Positions 6,075-31,662 of a stretch of DNA of 64,000 nt are shown here, piece by piece. Where the stretch lies: positions 3,552,001 through 3,616,000 of the forward strand of contig OZ255836.1 in assembly GCA_965277715.1 (NCBI GenBank). The letters run 5' to 3'. The notes beneath the pieces were generated by a model. That model was given only the letters and a program-made list of their open reading frames with translations. It was not told the origin of the DNA and made no database searches. Each line of letters opens with the position of its first letter. Position 1 is the first letter of the stretch. The stretch is from Gammaproteobacteria bacterium. GTDB lineage: Bacteria; Pseudomonadota; Gammaproteobacteria; JBCCGL01. The position numbers and the translations under genes were made by a program.

Positions 6075-7241
6075 ATGAGCAACGATTTTATTTTTACGTC
6101 TGAGTCTGTGTCTGAAGGTCACCCGGATAAAATGGCCGATCAAATCTCAGATGCCGTGCTGGATGCTATTCTGGAACAGGATAAGCGTGCACGGGTTGCT
6201 TGTGAAACCCTGGTCAAGACCGGTTTGGTGATGATTGCCGGTGAAGTGACCACCTCTGCCTGGGTCGATTTGGAAGCAGTGGTGCGGGAGAAGGTATTGG
6301 ATATTGGTTATAACGGCTCGGACGTCGGTTTTGATGGGGCTACCTGTGCCGTGGTGAATGGCCTTGGTAAACAGTCGCAGGATATAGCAATGGGCGTTGA
6401 CCGTGAACGCGATGAAGAGCAGGGTGCAGGTGACCAGGGTTTGATGTTTGGTTATGCTTCAAACGAAACTGACGTATTGATGCCTGCGCCGATTACCTAC
6501 GCGCATCGACTGGTTGAGCAGCAGTCGAAGGTGCGTAAGCGTGGTGAGTTGAAATGGTTGCGCCCGGATGCAAAAAGCCAGATAACATTGCGCTATAGCA
6601 ACGGTAAACCCGTGGGGATGGAAGCGGTGGTGCTGTCGACACAGCACGATCCCGATATATCACTGGCCAACCTGCAGGAAGCGGTGATGGAACATATCAT
6701 CAAACCAATATTACCCAGCGAATGGATTGCTGGTTGCCCAGGTGAAAATATCCATATTAACCCAACGGGCAATTTTGTTATTGGTGGGCCAGTGGGTGAC
6801 TGCGGTTTAACCGGGCGCAAGATTATCGTCGACACCTATGGGGGGATGGCACGCCACGGTGGCGGTGCGTTTTCTGGGAAAGATCCGTCAAAGGTTGATC
6901 GCTCGGCCGCTTATGCGGGGCGCTATGTGGCGAAAAATATCGTTGCTGCAGGGCTGGCAGACCGGTGCGAGATTCAAATCTCTTACGCAATTGGTGTGGC
7001 CAAACCGACATCGATTAGTATCGAAACGTTTGGTACCGGTAAGATTGATGATCGAAAGATTGAAGCCTTGGTTGCTGGGCATTTTGATTTGCGCCCTTAC
7101 GGTATTCTGAAAATGCTCGATTTGATTCGCCCCATTTATGCGGCAACGGCCCGCTATGGCCATTTTGGTCGCGAAGATGACGCATTTACGTGGGAGCGGA
7201 TCGATAAATCTGACGTCCTGCGCAATGCTGCTGGACTATAA
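6075..7241 (+). CDS. metK: S-adenosylmethionine synthetase
   Basis: [35 protein letters not shown]. Confidence 0.99.
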
Positions 7242-7286: not shown

Positions 7287-7380
7287 CCTGCCGAGGGGCG
7301 TTGCGACAGAGAGGGTTGTATTTTTATTAACCTAGCTCTGCCAGGCTCGGTGTGGTCAAGTTTCTGTAAACGACGCTCGC
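7287..7380 (+). promoter_or_regulatory. SAH riboswitch upstream of ahcY
   Basis: CCGAGGGGCGTTGC...AGGCTCGG (P1), variable hairpin CAGAG..AGGGTT/AACCT..CTCTG, pseudoknot partner AACGACGCTC just before RBS GGAGG; canonical ahcY context. Confidence 0.9.
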
Positions 7381-7398
7381 TGATGACGGAGGTGCACA

Positions 7399-8715
7399 AT
7401 GAGTGCAGCTGTACAACAAATCAGCGACTTCACCGATTACAAAGTCGCCGATATGTCTCTGGCCGAATGGGGCCATAAAGAAGTATCTATTGCCGAAACT
7501 GAAATGCCGGGTCTGATGGCTTTGCGTGAGGAGTACGGGGGTCAGCAACCACTGAAAGGTGCCCGAATTGCCGGTTGTCTGCATATGACTATTCAGACTG
7601 CCGTATTGATTGAGACGTTGATTGATCTTGGTGCGGAGATTCGCTGGTCATCGTGCAATATCTTTTCCACACAGGATCATGCAGCGGCGGCGATAGCCGA
7701 CAACGGTACACCGGTGTTTGCCTGGAAGGGCGAAACCGAAGAGGAGTTTGATTGGTGTATTGAGCAGACCATCCTTGGTCCCAATGGCTGGCGTCCAAAT
7801 TTAATTCTCGATGATGGGGGCGACCTCACGCTGATGATGCACGAGAAGTTTCCTGAATTGCTGGAGGGTGTTAATGGCCTTTCTGAAGAGACTACTACAG
7901 GGGTGCACCGGCTTTACGAGATGATGAAAGCGGGTACGCTGAAAGTGCCTGCTATCAATGTTAACGATTCAGTTACCAAATCAAAATTTGATAATCTTTA
8001 CGGTTGCCGTGAGTCATTACTCGACGGCATCAAACGGGCGACCGATGTAATGGTCGCTGGCAAGATTGCTATTGTGCTCGGCTATGGTGATGTTGGTAAA
8101 GGGTGTGCTCAGGCGTTTCGTGGTATGGGTGCTACTGTCTGGGTTACTGAAATCGACCCAATTTGTGCCCTGCAGGCATCGATGGAAGGTTACCGCGTAG
8201 TGAGAATGGACGATGTTGCCTCACAGGGTGATATTTTTGTGACCACGACGGGTAATATTGACGTGATTACTCATGCGCATATGGTGCAAATGAAAAATGA
8301 ATCGATCGTTTGTAATATTGGTCATTTCGATTCTGAAATTGCTGTTGCCAGCCTCAGGCAATATACGTGGGAAAATATCAAACCGCAGGTGGATCACATT
8401 GTATTTCCCGATGGCAAGCGCATTATTCTACTCGCTGAAGGCCGCCTGGTGAATCTCGGTTGTGCCACAGGTCACCCCAGTTTTGTGATGTCGGCATCGT
8501 TTACCAACCAGGTACTGGCCCAGATAGAGCTTTGGCAGCGCCCGGAACAGTATGCGGTGGATGTTCACGTCTTGCCAAAGTCGCTCGATGAAAAAGTGGC
8601 GCGTTTGCACCTTGGCAAAATTGGTGCAAATCTGACTGTGCTGACACAGGAACAAGCTGATTATATTGATATATCGGCCAATGGACCGTTTAAAGCGGAT
8701 CATTATCGTTACTGA
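7399..8715 (+). CDS. ahcY: Adenosylhomocysteinase
   Basis: [45 protein letters not shown]. Confidence 0.99.
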
Positions 8716-15849: not shown

Positions 15850-17024
15850 GGTTCTTTCCCGGTTGTGGGAGGCATAATATTTTATACCCTTTGCTATTTT
15901 GAGAGAACCCGGTGTTATCAAGCATTGAAGAACATCACAGTCAGCTCCTGGGTCTGATAGATGGCGGGTCAGTAACCTCAGTTGATTTAGACCCATCAGG
16001 GTTAAAAGTATATGCATTTCGTTGGTGTTTAGCGGTGATCAGAGTCCTTGCTCGCACGCATTCCTCGGGTAAGCTGCCCAGCACATGGTGTTAAAAGCAT
16101 GGTATTACCCTGGGCAAGCAAGAGCAGTCGTTTTACATTGTTATTTGAACTATTTTCCATCAGGGTGTTGCGAGTCTCAGGTAGTGTCGAAGAGGCGCGT
16201 AAGTTACTGGGGCTTAGCTGGAACGCGGTGGAAGCCATCAAAGTCCGAGCTGTCGAACGGGTTCTTTCGCGTCGGGAATTGATTACAATAGAGCACCTTG
16301 GTACTGATGAGAAGCCTCACCGTAAAGGGTATGACTATGTGACGCTCATCAATGATATTGACGCAGGGCGAGTATTGGATGGGGTGAGAGATCGCACGCA
16401 GGCAGCCTGTGAGGAGGCGTTAGAGGTTGCGCTGACGGATAGCTAGCGAGAACAGGTGAAAGCTGTCGCGATTGATATGTGGCCTGTGTTCATTAATGCT
16501 GTTGAGGTAAAACTCGCCGACAGTGCGTGCGATTGTTCACGACCGTTTTCACATTAGGTAACACCTCAATAAGGCGGTTGATCAGGTGCGTTGTGTTGAA
16601 CATAGAGCGCTTCTGTCAAAGGGTGATACCCGGTTGAAAAAGAGTCGTTATCACTGGCTAAAAAACGAAGAGAATTTATCTGATAAAGCAGCCAGGCATT
16701 TTGAATCACTGAAGAATGATCAGTTATTGACAGCGCGAGCCTGGGCGATAAAAGAACTGTTTCGTGATGTTTGGATGTATAAGACGGCGGGTTGGACAGT
16801 ATCAAGAAAGTGGCAAAGATGATAAAAGCTTATTTGCCGAACATATTGACCTGGTTTAAGCACACAATAAGCAATGCTGTATAGAGGGACTGAATTCAAA
16901 AATTCAGGCGGTCAAATCGAATGCAAGAGGGTTTCGTTCGTTTGAAAATTACCGGCGGAGTATTTTATTTTACTATGGAAAGCTGGATATGGAACCCGTG
17001 GCTTCACAATAATCGGGAAGAACC
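15850..17024 (+). mobile_element. ISL3-family element copy 1, degenerate transposase
   Basis: Ends GGTTCTTTCCCGGTT / AATCGGGAAGAACC; 8-bp target duplication AGTTTTAT at 15842-15849 and 17025-17032; broken LGTDEK, HDRFH motifs. Confidence 0.92.
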
Positions 17025-17045
17025 AGTTTTATGGTGGATTAAATG

Positions 17046-17074
17046 TTGCAACAAAGTTTGTTTATTAATACAAT
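17046..17074 (+). promoter_or_regulatory. sigma70 promoter of the polysaccharide operon
   Basis: TTGCAA-N17-TACAAT. Confidence 0.7.
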
Positions 17075-17090
17075 GTTCATATCGTGAACA
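17074..17090. promoter_or_regulatory. Palindromic operator over the predicted start site (candidate MarR site)
   Basis: TGTTCA-TATCG-TGAACA inverted repeat, 80 bp upstream of the MarR-family gene. Confidence 0.55.
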
Positions 17091-17114
17091 ATGTGGTATT
17101 TAGCGATCTTCTGT

Positions 17115-17147
17115 GAATTCTTGATGAAAGAGTTCTGCGGTAGCCTG
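17115..17147 (+). promoter_or_regulatory. ops element (RfaH recruitment) with preceding hairpin, JUMPStart-like
   Basis: TGCGGTAGCCTG at 17136-17147 vs consensus GGCGGTAGnnTG; hairpin GAATTCTT-GATGA-AAGAGTTC directly 5'; rfaH lies 1.3 kb upstream. Confidence 0.75.
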
Positions 17148-17169
17148 CCTGAAATAAATGTAAAAGACT

Positions 17170-17490
17170 ATGGATGTTTCGGATTTAGAGTATAAAGTTT
17201 TAAAAATTCTTGAGCATAACCCTCGTTTGACACAGCGTGATGTTGCCAAAGCATTGGGTCTTAGTTTGGGGAAAACACATTACTTGATACGTGCCCTGAT
17301 TGATAAAGGCTGGGTGAAGTTTAATAATTTTAGGTGCTCGACAAATAAAATAGGATACTCTTATCTGTTAACGCCGAAAGGAATGGTGGAAAAAACACGT
17401 TTGGCATGGAAGTTTTTAGCTCGAAAGCAGGAAGAGTACAATCAGTTGAAAATAGAAATTGAAGTGCTGCAAGGTGAACTTAAAAAATAG
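17170..17490 (+). CDS. MarR-family EPS-associated transcriptional regulator
   Basis: NPRLTQRDVAKALGLSLGKTHY, NKIGYSYLLTPKGMVEKTRL..FLARK..EY. Confidence 0.85.
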   Translation: MDVSDLEYKVLKILEHNPRLTQRDVAKALGLSLGKTHYLIRALIDKGWVKFNNFRCSTNKIGYSYLLTPKGMVEKTRLAWKFLARKQEEYNQLKIEIEVLQGELKK

Positions 17491-17727
17491 TTTAACTTAC
17501 CGTACATGTTTTTCTAGTATTTGTAAAAATAAATTCCATTTATGTCGGTATTTATGTGATAAATATTAATTGAAATAGTATTTTGATGGCTTAACTGAAA
17601 TTTTTTCAGTTTCTATAAATAAGTATGGTGCAGTATGTTTTTCGCTATAGATTAAGTACTTTATATAAATCGAATTTGAAATTTTGATAACTAAAAACCT
17701 GATTTGTTTTTTTGCTGTTTTTGAGAT

Positions 17728-17976
17728 TTGGCTGGTTTTAAATTGAACATATGTTCTGTGATATTGGCGGGTGGTTATGGTACGCGATTATGGCCACTTT
17801 CACGTGCTATGCGCCCCAAACAGTTTTTACCGTTAGTTGGTAGCGGCACCATGCTGCAAGCGACAATCAAGCGAACGTCAGCATTAGATATTCAATCGAC
17901 CCTCATTGTTTGCAATGAAGAGCATCGTTTTCTTGTGGCCGAACAGCTCTGTGGAATTGCTCAACCTGGATTTATT
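17728..17976 (+). pseudogene. manC: Mannose-1-phosphate guanylyltransferase, N-terminal ~83 codons only, cut by ISL3 copy 2
   Basis: VILAGGYGTRLWPLSR..RPKQFL, CNEEHRFLVAEQL then runs into the IS terminus; rest of gene not in window. Confidence 0.88.
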
Positions 17977-19056
17977 GGTTCTTCCCCGGTTTGTGTGAGG
18001 TTATAGTATTTCATCCCCCCTTTGCTATTGAGAGACTCCGGTGCTATCGAGCCTTGAAGAACACTACAGCCAGCTCCTGGGTCTGACAGATGACTGGTCA
18101 GTGGTGTCAGTTGATTTAGACCCTTCAGGGTTAAAAGTATCCATTTCGTTGGCGTTTAGCGGCAACCACGGCCCTTGCTCGCACTGTGGAGGGGCTTAGC
18201 TGGAACGCAGTGGAAGCCATCAAAGCCCGCGCTGTCGAACGGGGACTTTCGCGTCGGGAATTGGTGACAATTGAGTACCTGGGTATTGATGAGAAGTCCC
18301 ACCGTAAAGGGCATGACTATGTGACGCTCATCAATGATATCGATGGAGGGCGAGTATTGGATGGAGTGAAAGATCGCACCCAGGCAGCCTGCGAGGAGGC
18401 GTTGGAGGTTGCGCTGACGGATAACCAGCGAGAACAGGTGAAAGCTGTCGCGATTGATAGGTGGCCTGCGTTCATTAATGCCGTTGAGGTAAAACTGTCA
18501 GACAGTGCGATTGTTCACGACCGTTTTCCTATTAGCCAACACCTGAATAAGGCGGTGGATCAGGTCCGTCGTGACGAACATAGAGACCTTTTGTCACAGG
18601 GCGATATCCGGTTGAAAAAGAGTTGTTATCACTGGTTAAAAAACGAAGAAAATTTGTCTAACAAAGCAGCCGAGCGCTTTGAGTCACTCAAGCATGATCA
18701 GTTATTGACAGCCCGAGCTTGGGCGATAAAAGAACTGTTTCGTGATTTTTGGACGTATAAGACAGCGGGTTGGGCAAAGCGTTTCTTTGACGAGTGGTAT
18801 TCATGGGCAATTCGGTGCCGATTGGACAGCATAAAGAAAGTGGCCAAGATGATAAAAACGCACATGCCGAACATATTGACATGGTTTAAGCACACAATAA
18901 GTAATGCCGTGTCAGAGGGTTTGAATTCAAAAATTCAAACAGTCAAATCGAATGCAAGAGGGTTTCGTTCGTTTGAAAGTTACCGGTGGAGTATTTTGTT
19001 TTACTGCGGAAAGCTTGATAGGGAACCGGTGGCTTCACAATAACCGGGGAAGAACC
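17977..19056 (+). mobile_element. ISL3-family element copy 2, internal 5' deletion
   Basis: Perfect 15-bp IR GGTTCTTCCCCGGTT; transposase C-part 18186-19043 (LGIDEK, IVHDRF, SNAVSEGLNSKIQ..K.NARGFRSF); no target duplication. Confidence 0.93.
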
Positions 19057-19221
19057 TTTTTGTTCAAGGGTTTATGGTGAATTCATTGTAACAAAATAAT
19101 CGAATATTCAGGCCTCTTTATTTCTTCTTAACCGGGCAGCAGTGAGATGAAAGAAAAATTTTTGTTGGGAATAATCAAATTTATATTACGAAAAAAATTC
19201 GATATCTATACACTTCTTTGA

Positions 19222-20583
19222 ATGAAATTTGAACTAGTGCAAAATCTCATTGTGAATGTTAAGTATTTTTACCGTAACCAATTTGGTCGTACAGTTGTAG
19301 CCAACTACGTGGCTGCAGTAACAGGGATTCTTGCACCCCTTATAGCTTTGCCTTGGTATCTCTCTACTTTGGGTAGCGTGCAATGGGGATTAGTCAGTTT
19401 TATAGCAGTTTTACAGGCAATGTTAAGCCTATTGGATGCTGGTTTATCTCAAGCTTTAGTTAAAAAATTTTCAGAATACCGAACAGAAATTAAAAAAAAT
19501 AAGAAGTTTTTAAATTTATTTTTTTCAATGGAAAGGCTAAGTTGGATTTTTTCTGGAGCTTTAGCTGTAATTGTGATTGTATTTTCTTCTGCTATATCTG
19601 AACTCTGGTTGCAAACACATGATGAAATTGTACCAAATGGGCAATTAACTATAATCGGTGCTGCGCTAATTTTTTTCTGGGTGAATGGCGGTTCTATATA
19701 CCGCTCTGTATTGATAGCTTCAGACTCGCAAATTGCGTTGAGTGTGCTGTCTTCTATAAGCATAATAGTAAGGCATGCAGCTACTGTAGTGGTTTTGCAA
19801 TTTCATCCATTTTTAATTGCTTATATTGCTACTCAAATTCTATTTTTAGCAGTAGAGGTAATGGTTCGAAAATTTATATCTTTTATATGTATTGGTAAAG
19901 ATAAAGGGCAATGGGATTTTGAATTAATTAAAGAACTTGGAACATATTTTGCTGGAATGATAGGAGCCACGCTTGTCGGGGTTTTAACTGTACAACTAGA
20001 TAAGTTGATGGTAAGTAAATTTCTTTCTGTTGAAAAGCTAGGATATTATTCTATAGCATCTGTAATTGGTTTAGGAGTTTTACAATTAGTTTACCCCATG
20101 ATGTACGCAAATTTACCAAAATTATCTGTTTGTAAGAAAAAAAGCAAAGTTCGATCTCTTATTAATTTAAAAACATTTGTTTTTTTTATTGTAGTAATTT
20201 TTTTTTCATGGTTTTTATACATAAAATTTGGCAAACATATTTTAATATTTTGGATAGGTAACATTGGTACTGTAGATATTATCTATCCAGTTGTAACTGT
20301 TTTATTAATCGGCAGTACTATTAATGCATTTTGGTGTATAGGGCAAATTAATCTTATCGCAGATGGGGACTATCCCCAAATCGCTAGAATAAATTTTCTA
20401 ATTCTTGGGGTTGTCTGTGTTGTGATGCCTATTACTATTAATAGTTTTGGAATGATTGGTGCTGCATACTCATGGGTACTTTTAAATTTAATAGGGTTTT
20501 TTATTACTTGCTCTTGGGTTGTTAATCTGATTGAAATATTTTTTCTGAAATTCTATAAAAATAGTTTTTTAACAAGAAATTAA
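19222..20583 (+). CDS. wzx: Polysaccharide flippase (Wzx family)
   Basis: Multi-TM, very AT-rich; LDAGLS, QLDKLMVSKFLSVEKLGYYSIA, FGMIGAA motifs. Confidence 0.8.
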   Translation: MKFELVQNLIVNVKYFYRNQFGRTVVANYVAAVTGILAPLIALPWYLSTLGSVQWGLVSFIAVLQAMLSLLDAGLSQALVKKFSEYRTEIKKNKKFLNLFFSMERLSWIFSGALAVIVIVFSSAISELWLQTHDEIVPNGQLTIIGAALIFFWVNGGSIYRSVLIASDSQIALSVLSSISIIVRHAATVVVLQFHPFLIAYIATQILFLAVEVMVRKFISFICIGKDKGQWDFELIKELGTYFAGMIGATLVGVLTVQLDKLMVSKFLSVEKLGYYSIASVIGLGVLQLVYPMMYANLPKLSVCKKKSKVRSLINLKTFVFFIVVIFFSWFLYIKFGKHILIFWIGNIGTVDIIYPVVTVLLIGSTINAFWCIGQINLIADGDYPQIARINFLILGVVCVVMPITINSFGMIGAAYSWVLLNLIGFFITCSWVVNLIEIFFLKFYKNSFLTRN

Positions 20584-20615
20584 AAAAATTATGAAAAATA
20601 TTTTCGATAAAGCTA

Positions 20616-20988
20616 AGGCCTGTTGACGTTTGGCTATAAATTTTTGAAACAAAAGGCAAACTCGTATCATTAGATGTGAGAAAAACAACAAATACGAGTT
20701 TGCCATGCCCCGATTATTGCTCAACGATGAGTATTGGTCGAAGCTACGGAGTATCATGCTTAAAGAAGGCATTTATGACAAGCCGAAGTTAAGGTTAGTC
20801 GTTGAAGGAATTCGTTATCGATTGCGTGTGGGGTGTCCGTGGCGAGATTTACCGGTGTCATTTGGTGACTGGAATAGCGTTTATAAACGCGTCAATGACT
20901 GGTCATCGAAAGACAAGTTAATGAACATTTTCCATGCGCTTGTCGAAGAACCCGATCAAGAATGGGCGTTTATTGATGGAAGTATTGT
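20616..20988 (+). mobile_element. IS5-family (IS427-like, TA target) left half, truncated by ISL3 copy 3
   Basis: TA + IR AGGCCTGTTGACGTTT; ORF from 20705 MPRLLLNDEYW...GCPWRDLP..FGDWNSVYKR...FIDGSIV. Confidence 0.85.
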
Positions 20989-22211
20989 GGTTCCTCCCCG
21001 GTTTGTGTGAGGTTATAGTATTTCCTCCCCCTTTGCTATTGAGAGACTCCGGTGCTATCGAGCCTTGAAGAACACTACAGCCAGCTCCTGGGCCTGACAG
21101 ATGACTGGTCAGTGACATCAGTTGATTTAGACCCTTCAGGGTTAAAAGTATCCATTTCGTTGGCGTTTAGCGGCAACCACGACCCTTGCTCGCACTGTGG
21201 CGAAGTGAGTCCGTTCTATGATCACCGTTCACAAGAGCGATCCTGGAGACACCTGGATACTATGCAGTTTGAAACGTGCCTACACAGTCGCATTCCCCAG
21301 GGTGTTGCAAGCCTCACGTAGCGTCGAAGAGGCGCGTAAGTTACTGAGGCTTAGCTGGAACGCAGTGGAAGCCATCAAAGCCCGCGCTGTCGAGCGGGGA
21401 CTTTCGCGTCGGGAATCGGTGACAATTGAGTACCTGGGTATTGATGAGAAGTCCCACCGTAAAGGGCATGACTATGTGACGCTCATCAATGATATCGATG
21501 GAGGGCGAGTATTGGATGGAGTGAAAGATCGTACCCAGGCAGCTTGTGAGGAGGCGTTGGAGGTTGTGCTGACGGATAACCAGCGAGAACAGGTGAAAGC
21601 TGTCGCGATTGATAGGTGGCCTGCGTTCATTAATGCCGTTGAGGTAAAACTGTCAGACAGTGCGATTGTTCACGACCGTTTTCCTATTAGCCAACACCTG
21701 AATAAGGCGGTGGATCAGGTCCGTCGTGATGAACATAGAGACCTTTTGTCACAGGGCGATACCCGGTTGAAAAAGAGTCGTTATCACTGGTTAAAAAACG
21801 AAGAAAATTTGTCTGACAAAGCAGCCGAGCACTTTGAATCACTCAAGCATGATCAGTTATTGACAGCCCGAGCCTGGGCGATAAAAGAACTGTTTCGTGA
21901 TTTCTGGATGTATAAGACAGCGGGTTGGGCAAAGCGTTTCTTTAGCGCATGGTATGCGTGGGCAATTCGGTGCCGATTGGACAGCATAAAAAAAGTGGCC
22001 AAGATGATAAAAACGCACATGCCGAACATATTGACATGGTTTAAGCATACAATAAGTAATGCCGTATCAGAGGGTTTGAATTCAAAAATTCAGACAGTCA
22101 AATCGAATGCAAGAGGGTTTCGTTCGTTTGAAAGTTACCGGCGGAGTATTTTGTTTTACTGCGGAAAGCTGGATAGGGAACCGGTGGCTTCACAATAATC
22201 GGGGAAAAACC
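20989..22211 (+). mobile_element. ISL3-family element copy 3, ~96-bp deletion with frameshift
   Basis: Ends GGTTCCTCCCCGGTT / AATCGGGGAAAAACC; split ORFs 21052-21321 and 21218-22198; no target duplication. Confidence 0.93.
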
Positions 22212-25703: not shown

Positions 25704-26398
25704 AATTGTTACGCAAAACTATCGATGTAGTATCTTTATTATTGGGTAAAATTAAGTATAAGCAAAGTATTTCAATACCTAATGATTCTATCGTTAAGGT
25801 AAATTTGGGCTGTGGTTTGGCAGTAGCTCCAGGCTGGATTAATATTGACGGCAGTCTTAATGCATTAGTAGCTACACTGCCAGCTTGGATTCATAAAATT
25901 GCTTACCGTCTAACGGGAGCAAAAAACTACTACAGTGAGAAAGAGTATCTTTGTTTGCTTCGAAATAATCGATTTGTTCATCACGATTTATCTTATGGTT
26001 TGCCTATCTCGGATAGTTCTGTAGATATTTTATATTCATCTCATTTTATTGAACATCTTTTTCGAAATGATGCGATAAATCTTTTAAAAGAAAGTTTTCG
26101 CGTCCTTAAACCAAAAGGCATACTTAGAGTATCAGTACCTGATCTTGAGTATGCAATATCATTATATTCAAATGGTGAAAAAGAAAAAATGTTATCTGCT
26201 TATTTTTTTGTAGATGATGATGATAGTTATTACGCTCGTCACAAGTACATGTATGATTATAGCATGATTTCGGGTATTTTAAAAAATGTTGGATTTAAAG
26301 ATGTTTATCGCTGTGATTATCAACAAGGACAAGCACTTGATTTAAATTTTCTTGATAATAGGCCTGATGAATCTCTATTTGTTGAAGCTGTACGTTAG
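25700..26398 (+). CDS. Class I SAM-dependent methyltransferase
   Basis: VNLGCG...GWINID, YSSHFIEHL, RVLKPKGILRVSVPD. Confidence 0.82.
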   Translation: MKLLRKTIDVVSLLLGKIKYKQSISIPNDSIVKVNLGCGLAVAPGWINIDGSLNALVATLPAWIHKIAYRLTGAKNYYSEKEYLCLLRNNRFVHHDLSYGLPISDSSVDILYSSHFIEHLFRNDAINLLKESFRVLKPKGILRVSVPDLEYAISLYSNGEKEKMLSAYFFVDDDDSYYARHKYMYDYSMISGILKNVGFKDVYRCDYQQGQALDLNFLDNRPDESLFVEAVR

Positions 26399-27767
26399 TG
26401 TGCCCTAATATTTTTGTTCTTCCGTGTGCCGTAGAGCAAAGAGTGTAGTAAGGCAAGAAGCTTTGCGACACTCAGAGCGTAAGCTCATAAGAAGATGGTG
26501 GTAGGCCCACCAGAGTCTGTTGTCGGTAACCGGCTTCAAACCACCCCAAGCTGCGTGCGTTAAGAGCGTAGGTGGTGAGCGTTGGGGAAAAGTCAATGCA
26601 AGAACATTGGCAGGTAAGATAGATGAGAGACGAGTAAACCCGAATACGTGTTGACGTGTCGAAACCAAATTGATAAGACATCAGAACCAGGGACGGGAGT
26701 TACAACTGGGATAAGTCTGTGCGTGAATGCTGAATGCGGCGGAGGTGGTGTCTGGCATACAGTGTACGTGACTGTGTATCAGGCTTTTTATGGGAACTGT
26801 GGGAACCAGTCGTTGTGATGCAAAGAGAGAAATACAAATCGCAAAAACGGTAAATATGAGAGTATCGAAGCACAGCACTGGGGCGGAGCTGTTCGTAGTA
26901 GTGATGAAGTGTTTGTAATGAACGTGGAGCGAAGGGGCAGCGTCAGATGGTTCTTTAAAGTGTTTACAACTGTCTTAGGCAGGAGGATATTCACGGAACA
27001 GAACAAAGACGTTAGGGCCTGTTGACGTTTCACATGGGTAACCAAAGAAAGGAGCATGCTAAGGCGAGCATGCTCCGATAATTCCGCTTCAACTTATCAT
27101 ATCGGGTGGCAATCGCTCGAAAATGCTTCAATCGAGCAAACACATTTTCAACCAGGTGTCGGTATTTGTATAAACACCAGTCGATATCCTCATTGCCTAT
27201 TTTTGAGTTGCTTCGCCGTGGAATAACCGGAACTGATTTTTTCTGTCTGATCTGATGGCGTAACGCCTCGCTGTCATACCCTTTGTCAGCCACCACATAC
27301 TCACTTTTTGGCAAGGCATCAATCACTTCAGGAGCCGCTGTGGAGTCATTAACCTGCCCAGCAGTGATGTCAAATAATACGGGCAACCCAAACCCATCTA
27401 CAATCATGTGTATTTTCGTTGTTTTCCCGCCTCGACTGTTGCCAATGGCTTGATTTTCATGCCCTCTAGCCCCTGCACTATGTTGGTGTGCCTTCACAAT
27501 ACTTCCATCAATAAATGCCCATTCTTGATCGGGTTCTTCGACAAGCGCATGGAAAATGTTGATTAACTTGCCTTTCGGTGACCAGTCATTGAAGCGTTTA
27601 TAAACGCTATTCCAGTCACCAAATGATGCCGGTAAATCTCGCTACGGACACCCCACACGCAATCGATAAAGAATTCCTTCGTAAGCGCCAAAGAATAGAC
27701 GTCTAGCAATTACTCGGGTTGGTCCTCACACTGCACCACAGCAACCCAATACCCGCATAGGTGTAGT

Positions 27768-28085
27768 ATGAGCAATAAAGAACGTGCGTCGTACTGGCGC
27801 AATCAAATTGAACAATGGCAAGCATCCGGTTTGAGTGGTGCGCAGTTTTGCCAGGATAACGGCATCAACTTGAAGCAGTTTTACTATTGGCACCGAAAAT
27901 GTTCCCGTAAAACTATTCAAGCAGTGCAGAGTAACATGCCTGTAGCAGGCTTTACCCAAGTGATGGTGGCTGATAGGCAAAGGGCTGATCCGGGTTTGTG
28001 TTTTACGCTGGCCAATGGCTGTGCCATTTCTGGCATTACCGCCGCTAACGTGACGTTAGTTGGCGCGTTACTGGCGCAGTTATGA
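27768..28085 (+). CDS. tnpA: IS66 accessory protein TnpA
   Basis: W..QIEQWQASGLS.AQFC....I..KQFYYW HTH pattern. Confidence 0.85.
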   Translation: MSNKERASYWRNQIEQWQASGLSGAQFCQDNGINLKQFYYWHRKCSRKTIQAVQSNMPVAGFTQVMVADRQRADPGLCFTLANGCAISGITAANVTLVGALLAQL

Positions 28086-28450
28086 TGGCCCGTTATTTAC
28101 GGCCATCGCTCGATATTCCAAAGGTGTTTTTATACCGAGAGGCGGTGGACTTTCGTAAGCAAAGCAATGGCCTTGCGGCCATTGTTGAGCGAGAGCTGGG
28201 TCACAACCTGTTTGATGGTGGCTTATACGTGTTTACCAATCGCCGCCGCAACAAAATCAAGTGTCTGATGTGGGAGGACAACGGTTTTGTACTGTATTAC
28301 AAAGCCTTGGCCGAAGAGCAATTTAAGTGGCCTGACCTCGATGAGGAAGTCATATCACTGACCGGCACACAAATAAATTGGTTGCTTGATGGCTATGATT
28401 TAGCCGCAATGAAAGGCCACAAAGTATTGCATTACGAATCTGTTTTTTAG
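28082..28450 (+). CDS. tnpB: IS66 accessory protein TnpB
   Basis: VDFRKQSNGL, VFTNRRRNKIKCL.WEDNGF.LYYK.L. Confidence 0.9.
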   Translation: MMARYLRPSLDIPKVFLYREAVDFRKQSNGLAAIVERELGHNLFDGGLYVFTNRRRNKIKCLMWEDNGFVLYYKALAEEQFKWPDLDEEVISLTGTQINWLLDGYDLAAMKGHKVLHYESVF

Positions 28451-28501
28451 CCTGCTAAAGGGTGAAAAAGTGTTTAATTTTAATGATCTTTAGACAGCTA
28501 T

Positions 28502-30136
28502 TTGGTATTATTACGCGATGGTTTTGGCATCGGAAATTCAACAAAAACAACGCAATTACACCGGCTTAACGGCGGCTTAACGGCGGCTGAATTAGTGGCC
28601 GTGCTGGCAGAAAAAGAAGCCGAATTAGCGCACCATAACCAAATTATTCAACGTCACAAAAACACCATTAAAAACCGCGATCACTACATTCGTTTGCTGG
28701 AAGAACGGTTGCGTCTTTCCAAGGTTCAGAGGTTCGGCGCTAACAGCGAAAAGCTTGCCTTCCAGATTGACTTGTTTGATGAAGCGGAACTCGAACAAGC
28801 CATTGTCGACATTGATAACCAACTACCGGATGAGTTGCTACCTCAGCCTACGACCACGAACAAGAAAAAACGTCAACGCGGCTTCTCCAACCGTTTACCC
28901 CGTGTGCGCGTTGAGCTAGCCTTAAGCGATGAGGAAAAAGCAGGCGCTACACGTACTTTCTTTGTGAAAGTCAAAGAAGAACTCCAATACATTCCCGCAC
29001 AACTCAACGTTTTAGAGTACTGGCAAGAAAAGGCCGTCTTCAGCTACGCAGGTGATGACCACATCATCGCCGCGCAACGCCCCATACACCCTTTGGGTAA
29101 GTGCTTTGCCAGCACGGCTCTGCTCGCCAACATCATGGTGTCCAAATACGCCGATGGGTTGCCCTTGTATCGCCAGGAAAGCATTTTAAAGCGTTATGGA
29201 CATGCCGTGAGCCGCACCAACATGGCCAACTGGATGATTCGCCTGGAAGATGTCTTAAAACCCCTGATGACCTTGCTGCGGGAAAGTCAAAATGCCGGTG
29301 ATTATGTGCAAATGGACGAAACGCGTATCCAGGTACTCAAAGAAAATGGCAAAACCGCCCAATCCGATAAATGGATGTGGCTAACGCGCGGTGGCCCTCC
29401 AGCCCAGCCCAGTGTGTTGTTTGAATACGACCCCTCTCGTTCGGGCGAAGTGCCGCAACGCTTACTGGAAGGTTTTCAAGGCACTCTGCAAGTCGATGGC
29501 TATTCAGGGTATAACGGGGTGTGCGAACAACAAAATCTGACACGTATTGGTTGCTGGGATCATGTGCGCCGAAAATTCATTGATACCATTAAAGCCGCCG
29601 ATAAAGCAAACACGAAAAAACCCCGTGCCTCGAAAGCCGATGTCGCCATCGGTAAAATCCGCAAGCTCTATCTCATTGAGAAAAAGATACACGCGCTTGA
29701 ACCCGCAGAAAAACAAAGGTTTCGCCAAACACTTAGCCAACCGATATTAGAAGACTTCAAACAATGGCTGGATAAGCATATTACCCAGGTGGCTAAAAAG
29801 TCCCTTACGCGTAACGCCATGGACTATGCACTGAATCAATGGCATACCCTCACAGGCTACTGTGATGATGGACGGTTACACATCAGCAACGTGCTGGCTG
29901 AAAATGCCATTAGGCCTTTTGCCGTGGGTAGAAAAGCCTGGTTGTTTGCCGATTCAACCCGTGGCGCCCATGCCAGTGCCACATGTTACTCATTGATCGA
30001 AACGGCCAAAGCTAATGGGCTTGAACCCTATGCGTACATACTGCACGCCCTTAATCATATCGGCAGTACGGATACTCTTGAAAAGATAGAGGTCTTGCTG
30101 CCTTGGCATGTCGTTTTGGACATTACCTTGGAATAG
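28502..30136 (+). CDS. tnpC: IS66 DDE transposase TnpC (natural ATG 28518 thrown out of frame by an 11-bp duplication)
   Basis: RFGANSEK, SKYADGLPLYRQ, MDET, QVDGYSGY, CWDHVRRKF, SNVLAENAIR, SLIETAKANGL. Confidence 0.88.
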   Translation: MVLLRDGFGIGNSTKTTQLHRLNGGLTAAELVAVLAEKEAELAHHNQIIQRHKNTIKNRDHYIRLLEERLRLSKVQRFGANSEKLAFQIDLFDEAELEQAIVDIDNQLPDELLPQPTTTNKKKRQRGFSNRLPRVRVELALSDEEKAGATRTFFVKVKEELQYIPAQLNVLEYWQEKAVFSYAGDDHIIAAQRPIHPLGKCFASTALLANIMVSKYADGLPLYRQESILKRYGHAVSRTNMANWMIRLEDVLKPLMTLLRESQNAGDYVQMDETRIQVLKENGKTAQSDKWMWLTRGGPPAQPSVLFEYDPSRSGEVPQRLLEGFQGTLQVDGYSGYNGVCEQQNLTRIGCWDHVRRKFIDTIKAADKANTKKPRASKADVAIGKIRKLYLIEKKIHALEPAEKQRFRQTLSQPILEDFKQWLDKHITQVAKKSLTRNAMDYALNQWHTLTGYCDDGRLHISNVLAENAIRPFAVGRKAWLFADSTRGAHASATCYSLIETAKANGLEPYAYILHALNHIGSTDTLEKIEVLLPWHVVLDITLE

Positions 30137-31662
30137 AGGCTGATTTAAGGGCGCTTACATTCCTTCAACGACTAACCTTAACTTCGGCTTGTCATAAATG
30201 CCTTCTTTAAGCAAGCTACTCCGTAGCTTCGACCAATACTCATCGTTGAGCAATAATCGGGGCATGGCAAACTCGTATTTGTTGTTTTTCTCACATCCAA
30301 TGATACGAGTTTGCCTTTTGTTTCAAAAGCTTAAAAGCTTATAGCCAAACGTCAACAGGTCCTAGGCTATTTGTAGCAAAAGTGGACTGTAGACTGGTTC
30401 AGGAAGATACGTTTGTGGTTACATGATTTGTTTACCCATAGACGGGCAGGAACAGGCGAGGGTTTGTCTGATGGGAGCGGTATGAATCGAGAGGTTCACG
30501 TACCGTTCTGCGAGGGGTTGCGGGGGAGGTTCCCGCTGCCTACTCACCTGGTTTGTGTGAGGCTATAGTATTTCATGCTCCTTTGCTATTTTGAGAGAAC
30601 CCGATGTTATCGAGCCTTAAAGAACACTACAGTCAGCTCCTTGATCTGACAGATGAGTGGTCAGTGACATTAGTTGATTTAGAGACCCTTCAGGGTTTAA
30701 AAGTATCTATTTCGTTGGCGTTTAGCGATGACCAGGGTCCTTGTTCGCACTGTGGCGAAGTGAGCCCATTCTATGGCCACTGTTCACAAGAGTGATCCTG
30801 GAGGCACTTAGATACCATGCAATTTGAAACATGTTTGCACAGCCGCATTCCTAGGGTAAACTGTCCGGAACATGGTGTTAAAAGTATAGCGTTACCGTGG
30901 GCAAGCAATAGCAGTCGTTTTACGTTGTTGTTTGAATTATTTTTCATCAGGGTGTTGCCAGCCTCACGTAGCGTCGAAGAGGCGCGTAAGTTACTGGGGC
31001 TTAACTGAAACGCGGTGGAAGGAATCAAAGCCCGAGCTGTCGGGCGGGGTCTTTCGCGCCGGGAGTTGGTCACAATAAAGAATTGTTATCACTGGTTAAA
31101 AAACGAAAAAAATTTACCTGACAAAGCAGCTGTACACTTTGGAATTACTGAAGCATGATCAGTTATTGACAGCACGGACCTGGACGATAAAAGAACTGTT
31201 TCGTGATTTTTTGGGGGGATAAGGTGGCGGGTTAGGCAAAGCATTTCTTTGACAAGTGGTCTTTGTGGATAAGTCGGCGCCGACTGGACAGTATAAAGAA
31301 AATGGCAAAGATAATAAAAGCTCATTTGACGAAATATTGACATGGTTGAAGCGCACAATAAGTAATGCCGTATCAAAGAGCTTAAATTCAAAAAATCAGA
31401 CGCTTAAATCAAGCGCAAGAGGATTTTATGCGTTTGAAAGTTACCGGCAGAGTATTTTGTTTTACTGCGGAAAGCTGGATATGGAGTCAGTAACTTCACA
31501 ATAATCGGGAAAGCACCATTTAATTCAATGTGTATGCTGTAATTAAGATAATTTGATATGGAGTGAAAAAGAAGTGGTGTGCAATAGTTTTAATGCGAAG
31601 TTTTCAAATTTTCTAGGCATATCCAATATGTCAGTTAGCAACAATAGGTAATAATTTTCTCG

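Follow-up and report, generated by a model that had tools for sequence, protein, structure and literature searches.

An ORF-less group II intron in the left inverted repeat of an ISL3 element, itself invaded by two insertion sequences

Is the terminal inverted repeat (IR) of an insertion sequence (IS) a habitual home for a group II intron found inside it, or did the intron land there only once? The locus that raises this question lies in a 64,000-nt stretch of the chromosome of a gammaproteobacterium (assembly GCA_965277715.1, contig OZ255836.1, positions 3,552,001 to 3,616,000; hereafter the window, whose own numbering is used throughout). Here an element of the ISL3 family, one of four in the window and denoted ISL3 copy 4, is split near its left end by an intron. 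A model's reading of the bare letters (the sequence-only reading) had proposed that the intron may recognise the IR itself and would thus find many targets. We found that the locus is a fossil in which mobile elements are stacked in four layers, every layer now decayed, and that it probably goes back to a single ectopic, low-specificity insertion of a class D intron without an open reading frame (ΔORF; ORF, open reading frame) into the left IR, not to dedicated homing to IRs. Homing of a class D intron into the IRs of an IS has already been published (RmInt2 in ISRm17, PMC4615759), so the idea is not new, and what the present locus contributes to the published cases of introns in IRs is at most an example in ISL3, from a gammaproteobacterium associated with a sponge.

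A group II intron separates bases 9 and 10 of the ISL3 inverted repeat

The intron spans 26424-30547, and these 4124 nt stand between IR base 9 and IR base 10 of ISL3 copy 4. When they are deleted, the joined sequence (26415-26423, TGTTCTTCC, followed by CTGGTTTGTGTGAGG from 30548 onward) aligns without gaps to the left end of ISL3 copy 2, GGTTCTTCCCCGGTTTGTGTGAGG, with 22 of 24 positions identical. The rebuilt left IR that the sequence-only reading had described is therefore borne out, with the boundaries as first given.

We sought the intron core with Rfam covariance models, using cut-offs of 40 bits for RF00029 and 36 bits for RF01999. Both models scored above their cut-offs and agree with an intron from 26424 to 30547: RF01999 matches 26497-26615 with 101 bits, and RF00029, which describes domains V and VI (D5/D6), matches 30473-30548 with 59.1 bits. 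The element starts with GTGTG at 26424 and ends with CAC at 30547, as a group II ribozyme should. Twelve homologs back these boundaries, and end-to-end alignment is possible with introns of a Methylobacter plasmid, Escherichia coli, Marinobacter and a Thermodesulfobacteriota metagenome-assembled genome (MAG). The termini common to the homologs are GTGTGCCG at the 5' end and CTACTCAC at the 3' end; the 3' end is the same in 10 homolog rows, and in each of these, as in the window, the 3' exon begins with C. We also compared the window with contigs of the public runs X1, X6, X8 and X9; X6 and X9 are possibly the source of the window, X8 comes from a different study, and all statements about these runs hold among the matches listed. 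In a contig of X1, a sponge metagenome, the match begins exactly at 26424, and the 95 letters upstream are unlike the window.

An arrangement of this kind could also arise without any intron insertion, if recombination between repeats or a chimeric assembly had placed an intron between the two halves of an IR. The region is indeed dense in repeats, holding four ISL3 copies, two IS5 copies, a multi-copy IS66 element and a multi-copy intron, and the absence of a matching 8-bp duplication around ISL3 copy 4 would suit such an event. Against it stands the position of the break, which falls exactly at the first and last bases of the intron and leaves an IR that is restored gap-free. In addition, the 5' junction is crossed without differences by public contigs (X6 record 9 and X9 record 25, from runs that may be the source of the window), and the 3' junction is crossed by X8 records 23-24, from another study. 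We regard recombination or a chimera as highly improbable.

The ribozyme has lost its protein gene and has been entered by two IS elements

Most of the 4124 nt are not intron. The intron proper comprises ~774 nt, while 3347 nt are an IS5-family element that carries an IS66 element. The ORFs inside the intron are accordingly the tnpA, tnpB and tnpC set of the IS66 element (27768-30136, plus strand) and two halves of an IS5-family transposase (minus strand). The sequence-only reading overlooked that the intron contains no gene for an intron-encoded protein (IEP, the reverse transcriptase/maturase). Within the window, tblastn with the IEP of L001, the Methylobacter plasmid intron, found no reverse transcriptase (RT) homolog, there being no match below E = 2.

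Relics of both ends of the lost gene are still present. In alignment with L003, the E. coli intron, the 5' part of domain IV contains a Shine-Dalgarno sequence (AGGAGG) and the first ~8 IEP codons, with ACG in place of the ATG of L003. The 3' relic contains a decayed form of the class D C-terminal motif, DLFTH, where homologs have NLFAHW or GLFVHW. This motif is given as LX3AX3PXLF[V/A]HW in PMC4615759. We found it exactly in L001 and in the RmInt1-like intron L036, whose IEPs have 416-419 aa and no endonuclease domain, and as a near match in L002, the Marinobacter intron. The window copy has no IEP that could be assigned to class D, only the DLFTH relic; its domains I-III (D1-D3) are ~75% identical to those of introns whose IEPs carry the class D motif, and the L001 IEP is 58% identical to a 419-aa IEP of Sinorhizobium meliloti. 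Judged from these sequence relationships, the intron, a natural ΔORF form, probably derives from an RmInt1-type (bacterial class D) intron.

The order in which the two IS elements arrived can be read from their nesting. Assignment of the outer one to the IS5 family follows from a DDE_Tnp_1 domain (PF01609, E = 1.8e-23, 27030-27497, minus strand), 15-16-nt IRs, a TAG target duplication and a joint that represents the empty site. The inner one is assigned to the IS66 family by matches to TnpB_IS66 (E = 5.6e-34) and DDE_Tnp_IS66 (E = 3.7e-96; PF05717, PF03050, PF13817, PF13007), by the 8-bp duplication ATTCCTTC that flanks it at 27673-27680 and 30159-30166, and likewise by an empty-site joint.

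The ΔORF form is older than the IS insertions and has sister copies

Both empty sites occur in public contigs. The IS5 element without the IS66 element is seen as a joint from 27672 to 30159 in X9 and X1, and the intron without either IS as a joint from 26995 to 30363 in X6, X9 and X1. The latter joint has a depth of 511 in X6, 102 in X9 and 712 in X1, and the unique flank of the window has a depth of 275 in X6 and 29 in X9, which puts the IS-free ΔORF form at ~2-3.5x the depth of the flank. This excess means that sister copies exist, in two studies, one of them possibly the source of the window. The ΔORF form is thus older than the IS insertions, and it is multi-copy. The nested locus is present in X8 as well: record 17 covers 26516-27755, and the 3' junction is crossed by records 23-24.

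The sister copies may be 5'-truncated. In X6 and X9 the bin 26354-26507 has a depth equal to that of the unique flank, no second contig lies on the first 84 nt of the intron, and contigs in X9 and X1 begin matching at 26572; the uncovered part in itself proves nothing. As for the X1 copy whose match does begin at the first base, its unlike 5' flank means that it is not preceded by an ISL3 tip.

Low-depth contigs of X8 match only 26875-26937 (a conserved segment of domain III) and 30468-30514 (domain V) and then continue in unlike sequence; these are probably other introns of the same class, possibly IEP-encoding ones.

Pairing between the intron loops and the ISL3 tip

If the IR were a cognate target, the exon-binding sites (EBS) of the intron should pair with the intron-binding sites (IBS) of the exon about as well as they do in related introns. 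We derived the register of this pairing from 9 homolog insertions in six target types, including that of an RmInt1-like S. meliloti intron. In the homologs, EBS1 consists of 7 consecutive nucleotides in the loop of a hairpin, always at the same positions, and pairs with exon positions -7 to -1 at 6-7 of 7 bases; the stem of this hairpin shows compensatory changes at all 7 pairs across the nine sequences. EBS2 corresponds to positions 6-11 of the preceding loop and pairs with exon positions -16 to -11 at 4-6 of 6 bases, loop position i facing -(i+5). The EBS2 stem was not returned in the RNAalifold consensus. The loop-to-exon register agrees with the RmInt1 IBS2 at -9 to -13, as given in PMC4075523. 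Summed over both sites, the nine cognate pairings reach 11-13 of 13. A non-cognate control, made of 60 combinations of an intron with the exon of another target type, has a mean of 5.8 of 13; 16 combinations reach at least 8, 9 reach at least 9, and the maximum is 11. The register, derived by covariation for this class D sub-clade, is a by-product that can be used for target prediction.

In the window, exon recognition is probably of the IIB type: the two loops correspond by homology to the loops that covary with exons in the nine relatives, and C stands at +1. The sequence-only reading had named GGGAG (26695-26699) and AACCAAA (26663-26669) as EBS1 and EBS2, at positions equivalent to those of RmInt1. 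Both motifs are present and lie in the correct loops, but their register is shifted from that of the relatives by 1 nt for EBS1 and 2-3 nt for EBS2 and leaves no linker between the paired exon segments, and the claimed equivalence is lost. In the canonical register the window site pairs at 5/7 + 3/6, that is, 8 of 13, or at 6/7 + 3/6, that is, 9, with G at 26700; other intron copies have G at 26700 and 26703. Either value is below all nine cognate sites and within the non-cognate range. In the window copy the upper three pairs of the EBS1 stem are broken (G-A, G-A, A-C). A scan of the window for an ideal target in the canonical register yielded none that was perfect; the highest score was 12/14.

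The shifted register does give a better score. Held fixed, it pairs at 10.5 of 12, a value that 4 of ~120,000 window positions equal or exceed, although this register was chosen after looking. When any register in both loops and a linker of 0-3 nt are allowed, which is the fair test, 1.4% of the 39,904 positions examined in the window score at least 10.5. The base at 26415 is now T, and G is inferred to be ancestral there because all 7 other ISL3 ends start with GG. With G at both 26415 and 26700, the same flexible test gives 12.0, which 0.2% of the 39,904 positions reach.

Dedicated homing or a single ectopic insertion

That the intron entered this site means that it must have used some pairing. 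In the reading that we favour, and hold to be somewhat probable, a class D (RmInt1-type, endonuclease-less) ΔORF intron would have entered the left IR of ISL3 copy 4 in a single reverse-splicing event, into the top strand and between IR bases 9 and 10. Its purine-rich EBS1 loop would have paired with the pyrimidine tip (T)CTTCC, with the conserved C at +1 as further guidance, and RT would have been supplied in trans by a related intron. Later, the IS5-family element entered domain IV at a TAG, and the IS66 element entered the IS5-family element. We read the insertion as an ectopic event of low specificity, not as an IR-homing habit, because the canonical EBS2 register is unpaired.

If the ISL3 IR were a habitual target, insertions should recur at the same position in left and right ends. 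Such recurrence was not found. Only 1 of the 8 ISL3 ends in the window is occupied by the intron, and three of the empty ends have the identical sequence GTTCTTCC followed by C. The left end of ISL3 copy 2, likewise empty, lies on the same strand, is flanked by TTTATT and also scores 10.5 in the shifted register. Among 215 plasmid records that match the 3' junction between intron and ISL3, none covers at least 80% of the query, and only the intron part was matched. The exact EBS1-loop pattern was found neither in the genome contigs nor in the metagenome contigs, nor again when N was allowed at its two variable bases, and a class-level domain III pattern found 32 loci in the genome contigs, none more than 77% identical to the window D1-D3. 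We sought a close relative by UvrA in a 400-genome sample of the class of G003 and found G266 at 84% identity, all others being at or below 76%. G266 is the sole member of its family and order among the genomes searched; neither the intron nor ISL3 copy 3 nor RF00029 has a match in it, and this negative is uninformative. What stands of the sequence-only proposal is therefore an insertion in the IR tip, with loops that can pair with the tip and three flanking bases; the habit of homing to IRs does not follow, and a ribozyme that recognises the IR itself and has many targets is not supported, given a canonical pairing of 8-9 of 13, the single occupied end, the unlike flank of the X1 copy and the missing IEP.

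The alternative that deserves the most weight, although we consider it unlikely, is cognate homing in a register without a linker, in which ACCAAA abuts GGGAGG and the ISL3 tip with its T-rich flank is the natural site of the intron, as the ISRm17 IRs are for RmInt2. Several observations favour this alternative, and some of them count against our preferred reading. With both G's restored, ACCAAA (26664-26669) and GGGAGG (26695-26700) together form an uninterrupted complement of the exon TTTGGTTCTTCC; this 12-nt complementarity requires two ancestral corrections, each independently justified, and has p ~0.002 with all registers allowed. Both EBS loops are enlarged, so the register of this copy could differ from that of its relatives, and the linker is reported to vary in class D, from 1 nt in RmInt1 to 2 nt in RmInt2 (PMC4615759, PMC4075523). 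Cognate homing would equally well account for a good match when the intron inserted. RmInt2 is a precedent from within class D (PMC4615759), C is conserved at +1, and the IR tip is identical at both ISL3 ends. The intron's orientation, which suits our preferred reading too, fits entry at the lagging-strand template, a bias reported for class D introns (PMC4615759): the plus strand is G-rich in 29 of 32 2-kb bins of the window, and the intron would therefore be in the sense expected for such entry, which is a weak argument. Weighing on the other side, the zero-linker register is off by 1 nt for EBS1 and by 2-3 nt for EBS2 from the covariation register of nine relatives, one of them the RmInt1-like intron; seven of eight ISL3 ends are empty, among them the three with an identical tip and the copy 2 left end with its score of 10.5; the X1 copy is not preceded by an IR tip; no junction of intron and ISL3 was recovered at 80% coverage from the 215 plasmid records; and the IS itself supplies nine of the 12 paired bases, the other three being outside it. 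A good IBS1 and IBS3 together with a poor canonical IBS2 also fits the look that an off-target event is expected to have.

Cognate homing can be carried further, to a proposal that we find decidedly doubtful. A lineage of ΔORF class D ribozymes with a zero-length linker between IBS2 and IBS1 might read a 12-nt word made of the 9-nt ISL3 tip and three flanking T's. As ISL3 tends to lie beside A/T-rich DNA in the window, new ISL3 insertions would create targets, and the intron, mobilised by the RT of another intron, would sever the tip from the transposase-binding part of the IR. If this were true, a retroelement needing no gene of its own would be disarming a DNA transposon. All four ISL3 copies of the window are decayed, with or without an intron, so that the death of copy 4 can be accounted for without invoking one.

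It is more likely that the intron arrived by one ectopic insertion and afterwards served as a landing pad for two IS elements. On the evidence as it stands, the locus is a worked example of intron decay, with a lost ORF, sister copies that may be 5'-truncated and a domain IV invaded by IS elements, and it shows mobile elements nested four deep in a symbiont chromosome. Should the IR prove a true homing site, the strategy of RmInt2 in ISRm17 would have a second, independent instance here, in ISL3 and in the Gammaproteobacteria, carried out by a ribozyme without a protein gene.

Comparison with known introns

ORF-less group II introns are reportedly a recognised category in bacteria. The window intron is like them in being a ribozyme without a maturase gene; it retains relics of both ends of the ORF, and its domain IV is invaded by two IS elements.

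The nearest sequences that we found are L001 (Methylobacter sp. YRD-M1 plasmid), L003 (E. coli), L002 (Marinobacter) and L024 (Thermodesulfobacteriota), with 73-77% identity over D1-D3 and 80-92% over D5/D6. Their 5' and 3' termini and their loop architecture agree with those of the window intron. Unlike it, they keep an IEP gene of 416-440 aa, form 11-13 of 13 EBS/IBS pairs and are located in transposase genes (ISAs1-family for L001; L002 stands beside annotated transposases). Between the window D1-D3 and the RmInt1-like L036, blastn matches are confined to short stretches of 60-95 nt at 70-78%.

RmInt1 in ISRm2011-2 is described as sharing with the window intron the RNA type, a 7-nt EBS1 that pairs with -1 to -7, an EBS3-IBS3 G-C pair at +1, an IEP class without endonuclease and an IS host; it differs in its site within the transposase gene, its 1-nt linker and its IBS2 at -9 to -13 (PMC4075523, PMC5894124). 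RmInt2 of S. meliloti GR4 in ISRm17 (Martinez-Rodriguez et al. 2014, PMC4615759) is closer in location, being reported as a class D intron in a terminal IR that is present at both IS ends, with potential targets on both strands. Its authors state that this location provides twice as many targets and ensures that one of them is on the lagging-strand template (PMC4615759; PMC5894124). They also report a relaxed EBS2 specificity and a register shifted relative to RmInt1, features that resemble the window intron (PMC4615759). In contrast to the one occupied end of eight in the window, all seven RmInt2 copies are reported in ISRm17 IRs, with homing shown experimentally, and RmInt2 encodes an IEP, which the window copy does not (PMC4615759). 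The hosts differ too: ISRm17 is of the ISNCY family (PMC10194956), the window host of the ISL3 family.

Mobilisation of the window intron in trans would have a parallel in engineered introns. ΔORF RNAs of RmInt1 and RmInt2 are reported to retrohome when the IEP is expressed separately in trans (PMC4615759). Like the window intron, these donors are ribozymes that lack a maturase gene and depend on an IEP in trans (PMC4615759), with the difference that in the window the deletion is natural and the mobilisation in trans is inferred.

The ISL3 copies and the surrounding window

The window is bacterial chromosome, with uvrA, metK, an S-adenosylhomocysteine (SAH) riboswitch, ahcY, miaB and rho. Scattered through a cluster of glycosyltransferase and methyltransferase genes at 15.8-31.5 kb are four copies of ISL3, each decayed and each on the plus strand (Table 1). 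They belong to the ISL3 family by the DDE_Tnp_ISL3 domain (PF01610; E = 2.2e-72 in copy 3 and 3.8e-8 in copy 4), by IRs that start with GG and by an 8-bp duplication at copy 1. Only copy 1 retains this duplication in perfect form (AGTTTTAT), and it sets the ends of the IS at GGTTC...GAACC. The sequence-only reading was right that the same IR occurs at both ISL3 ends; in copy 2 the two IRs, left and right, agree in all of their first 15 nt.

Copy 4 has no matching 8-bp duplication and is 82-89% identical to copies 1-3. Its transposase gene is broken by stops and, relative to copy 3, by an internal deletion of ~345 bp (the gap between 21426 and 21772 of copy 3); the remnant matches DDE_Tnp_ISL3 at 31256-31504.

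Table 1. Coordinates of the intron, its loops and the mobile elements of the locus
Feature	Position	Strand	Remarks
Intron domains I-III and 5' part of domain IV	26424-27015	+	RF01999, 101 bits; ~75% identity to L001, L003 and L024
EBS2 loop	26661-26676	+	16 nt, against 13 in most homologs; EBS2 in class register ~26665-26671; AACCAAA of the sequence-only reading 26663-26669
EBS1 loop	26691-26705	+	EBS1 in class register 26696-26702 (GGAGTTA); GGGAG of the sequence-only reading 26695-26699
TAG target duplication of the IS5-family element	27013-27015, second copy 30363-30365
IS5-family element in domain IV	27016-30362	-	861 bp without IS66; terminal repeats GGCCTGTTGACGTTT and GGACCTGTTGACGTTT; transposase gene broken
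IS66-family element	27681-30158	+	tnpA 27768-28085, tnpB 28082-28450, tnpC 28502-30136
3' part of intron domain IV	30366-30474	+	relic of the last ~35 IEP codons; aligned with the ORF ends of L001, L003 and L036
Intron domains V and VI	30475-30547	+	domain V 30475-30508, starts with GAGC; ends in ...CTACTCAC; RF00029, 59.1 bits
ISL3 copy 1	15850-17024	+
ISL3 copy 2	17977-19056	+
ISL3 copy 3	20989-22211	+
ISL3 copy 4	26415-26423 plus 30548-31517	+	split by 4124 nt
Tip of the copy 4 left IR (intron 5' exon)	26415-26423	+	TGTTCTTCC; consensus tip GGTTCTTCC; 8 of 9 bases match the other ISL3 ends
Remainder of ISL3 copy 4	30548-31517	+	IR base 10 onward (CTGGTTTGTGTGAGG); decayed transposase gene; right end GGTGCTTTCC on the minus strand

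Copies 1-3 lie in the same orientation within 6.4 kb (15850-22211). None of them has a full-length transposase ORF, the longest having 326 aa (21218-22198). A second, partial copy of the IS5-family element, without IS66, is found at 20619-20989 on the minus strand. It is 93-95% identical to 27495-27680 and 30159-30359 and adjoins the left end of ISL3 copy 3 at 20989. Outside the gene cluster, the SAH riboswitch (7287-7385; RF01057, 50.8 bits) is located between metK (6075-7241) and ahcY (7399-8715), directly 5' of ahcY, which is its usual arrangement.

Observations on related introns

Two of the related loci contain class D introns in head-to-tail tandem, one in a Thermodesulfobacteriota MAG (L035:1158-1260) and one in Marinobacter piscensis (L006, minus strand, ~7653-7594). 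At the junction, a single C separates the 3' end of the first intron (CTACTCAC) from the start of the next (GTGTGCCG). The "exon" that the first intron thereby offers pairs poorly, at 2/7 with EBS1 and 3-4/6 with EBS2. Tandem copies have been reported for RmInt2 and explained otherwise there, by an EBS3 U that pairs with the first G of the intron (PMC4615759).

The 5' exons of L002, L010, L011, L024 and L027, from three Marinobacter species and a Thermodesulfobacteriota MAG, end in a shared homing word, GGAG(T/C)TGGGA(C/T)A, which follows G(T/C)NTGG. This points to one target type across two phyla, beside transposase genes.

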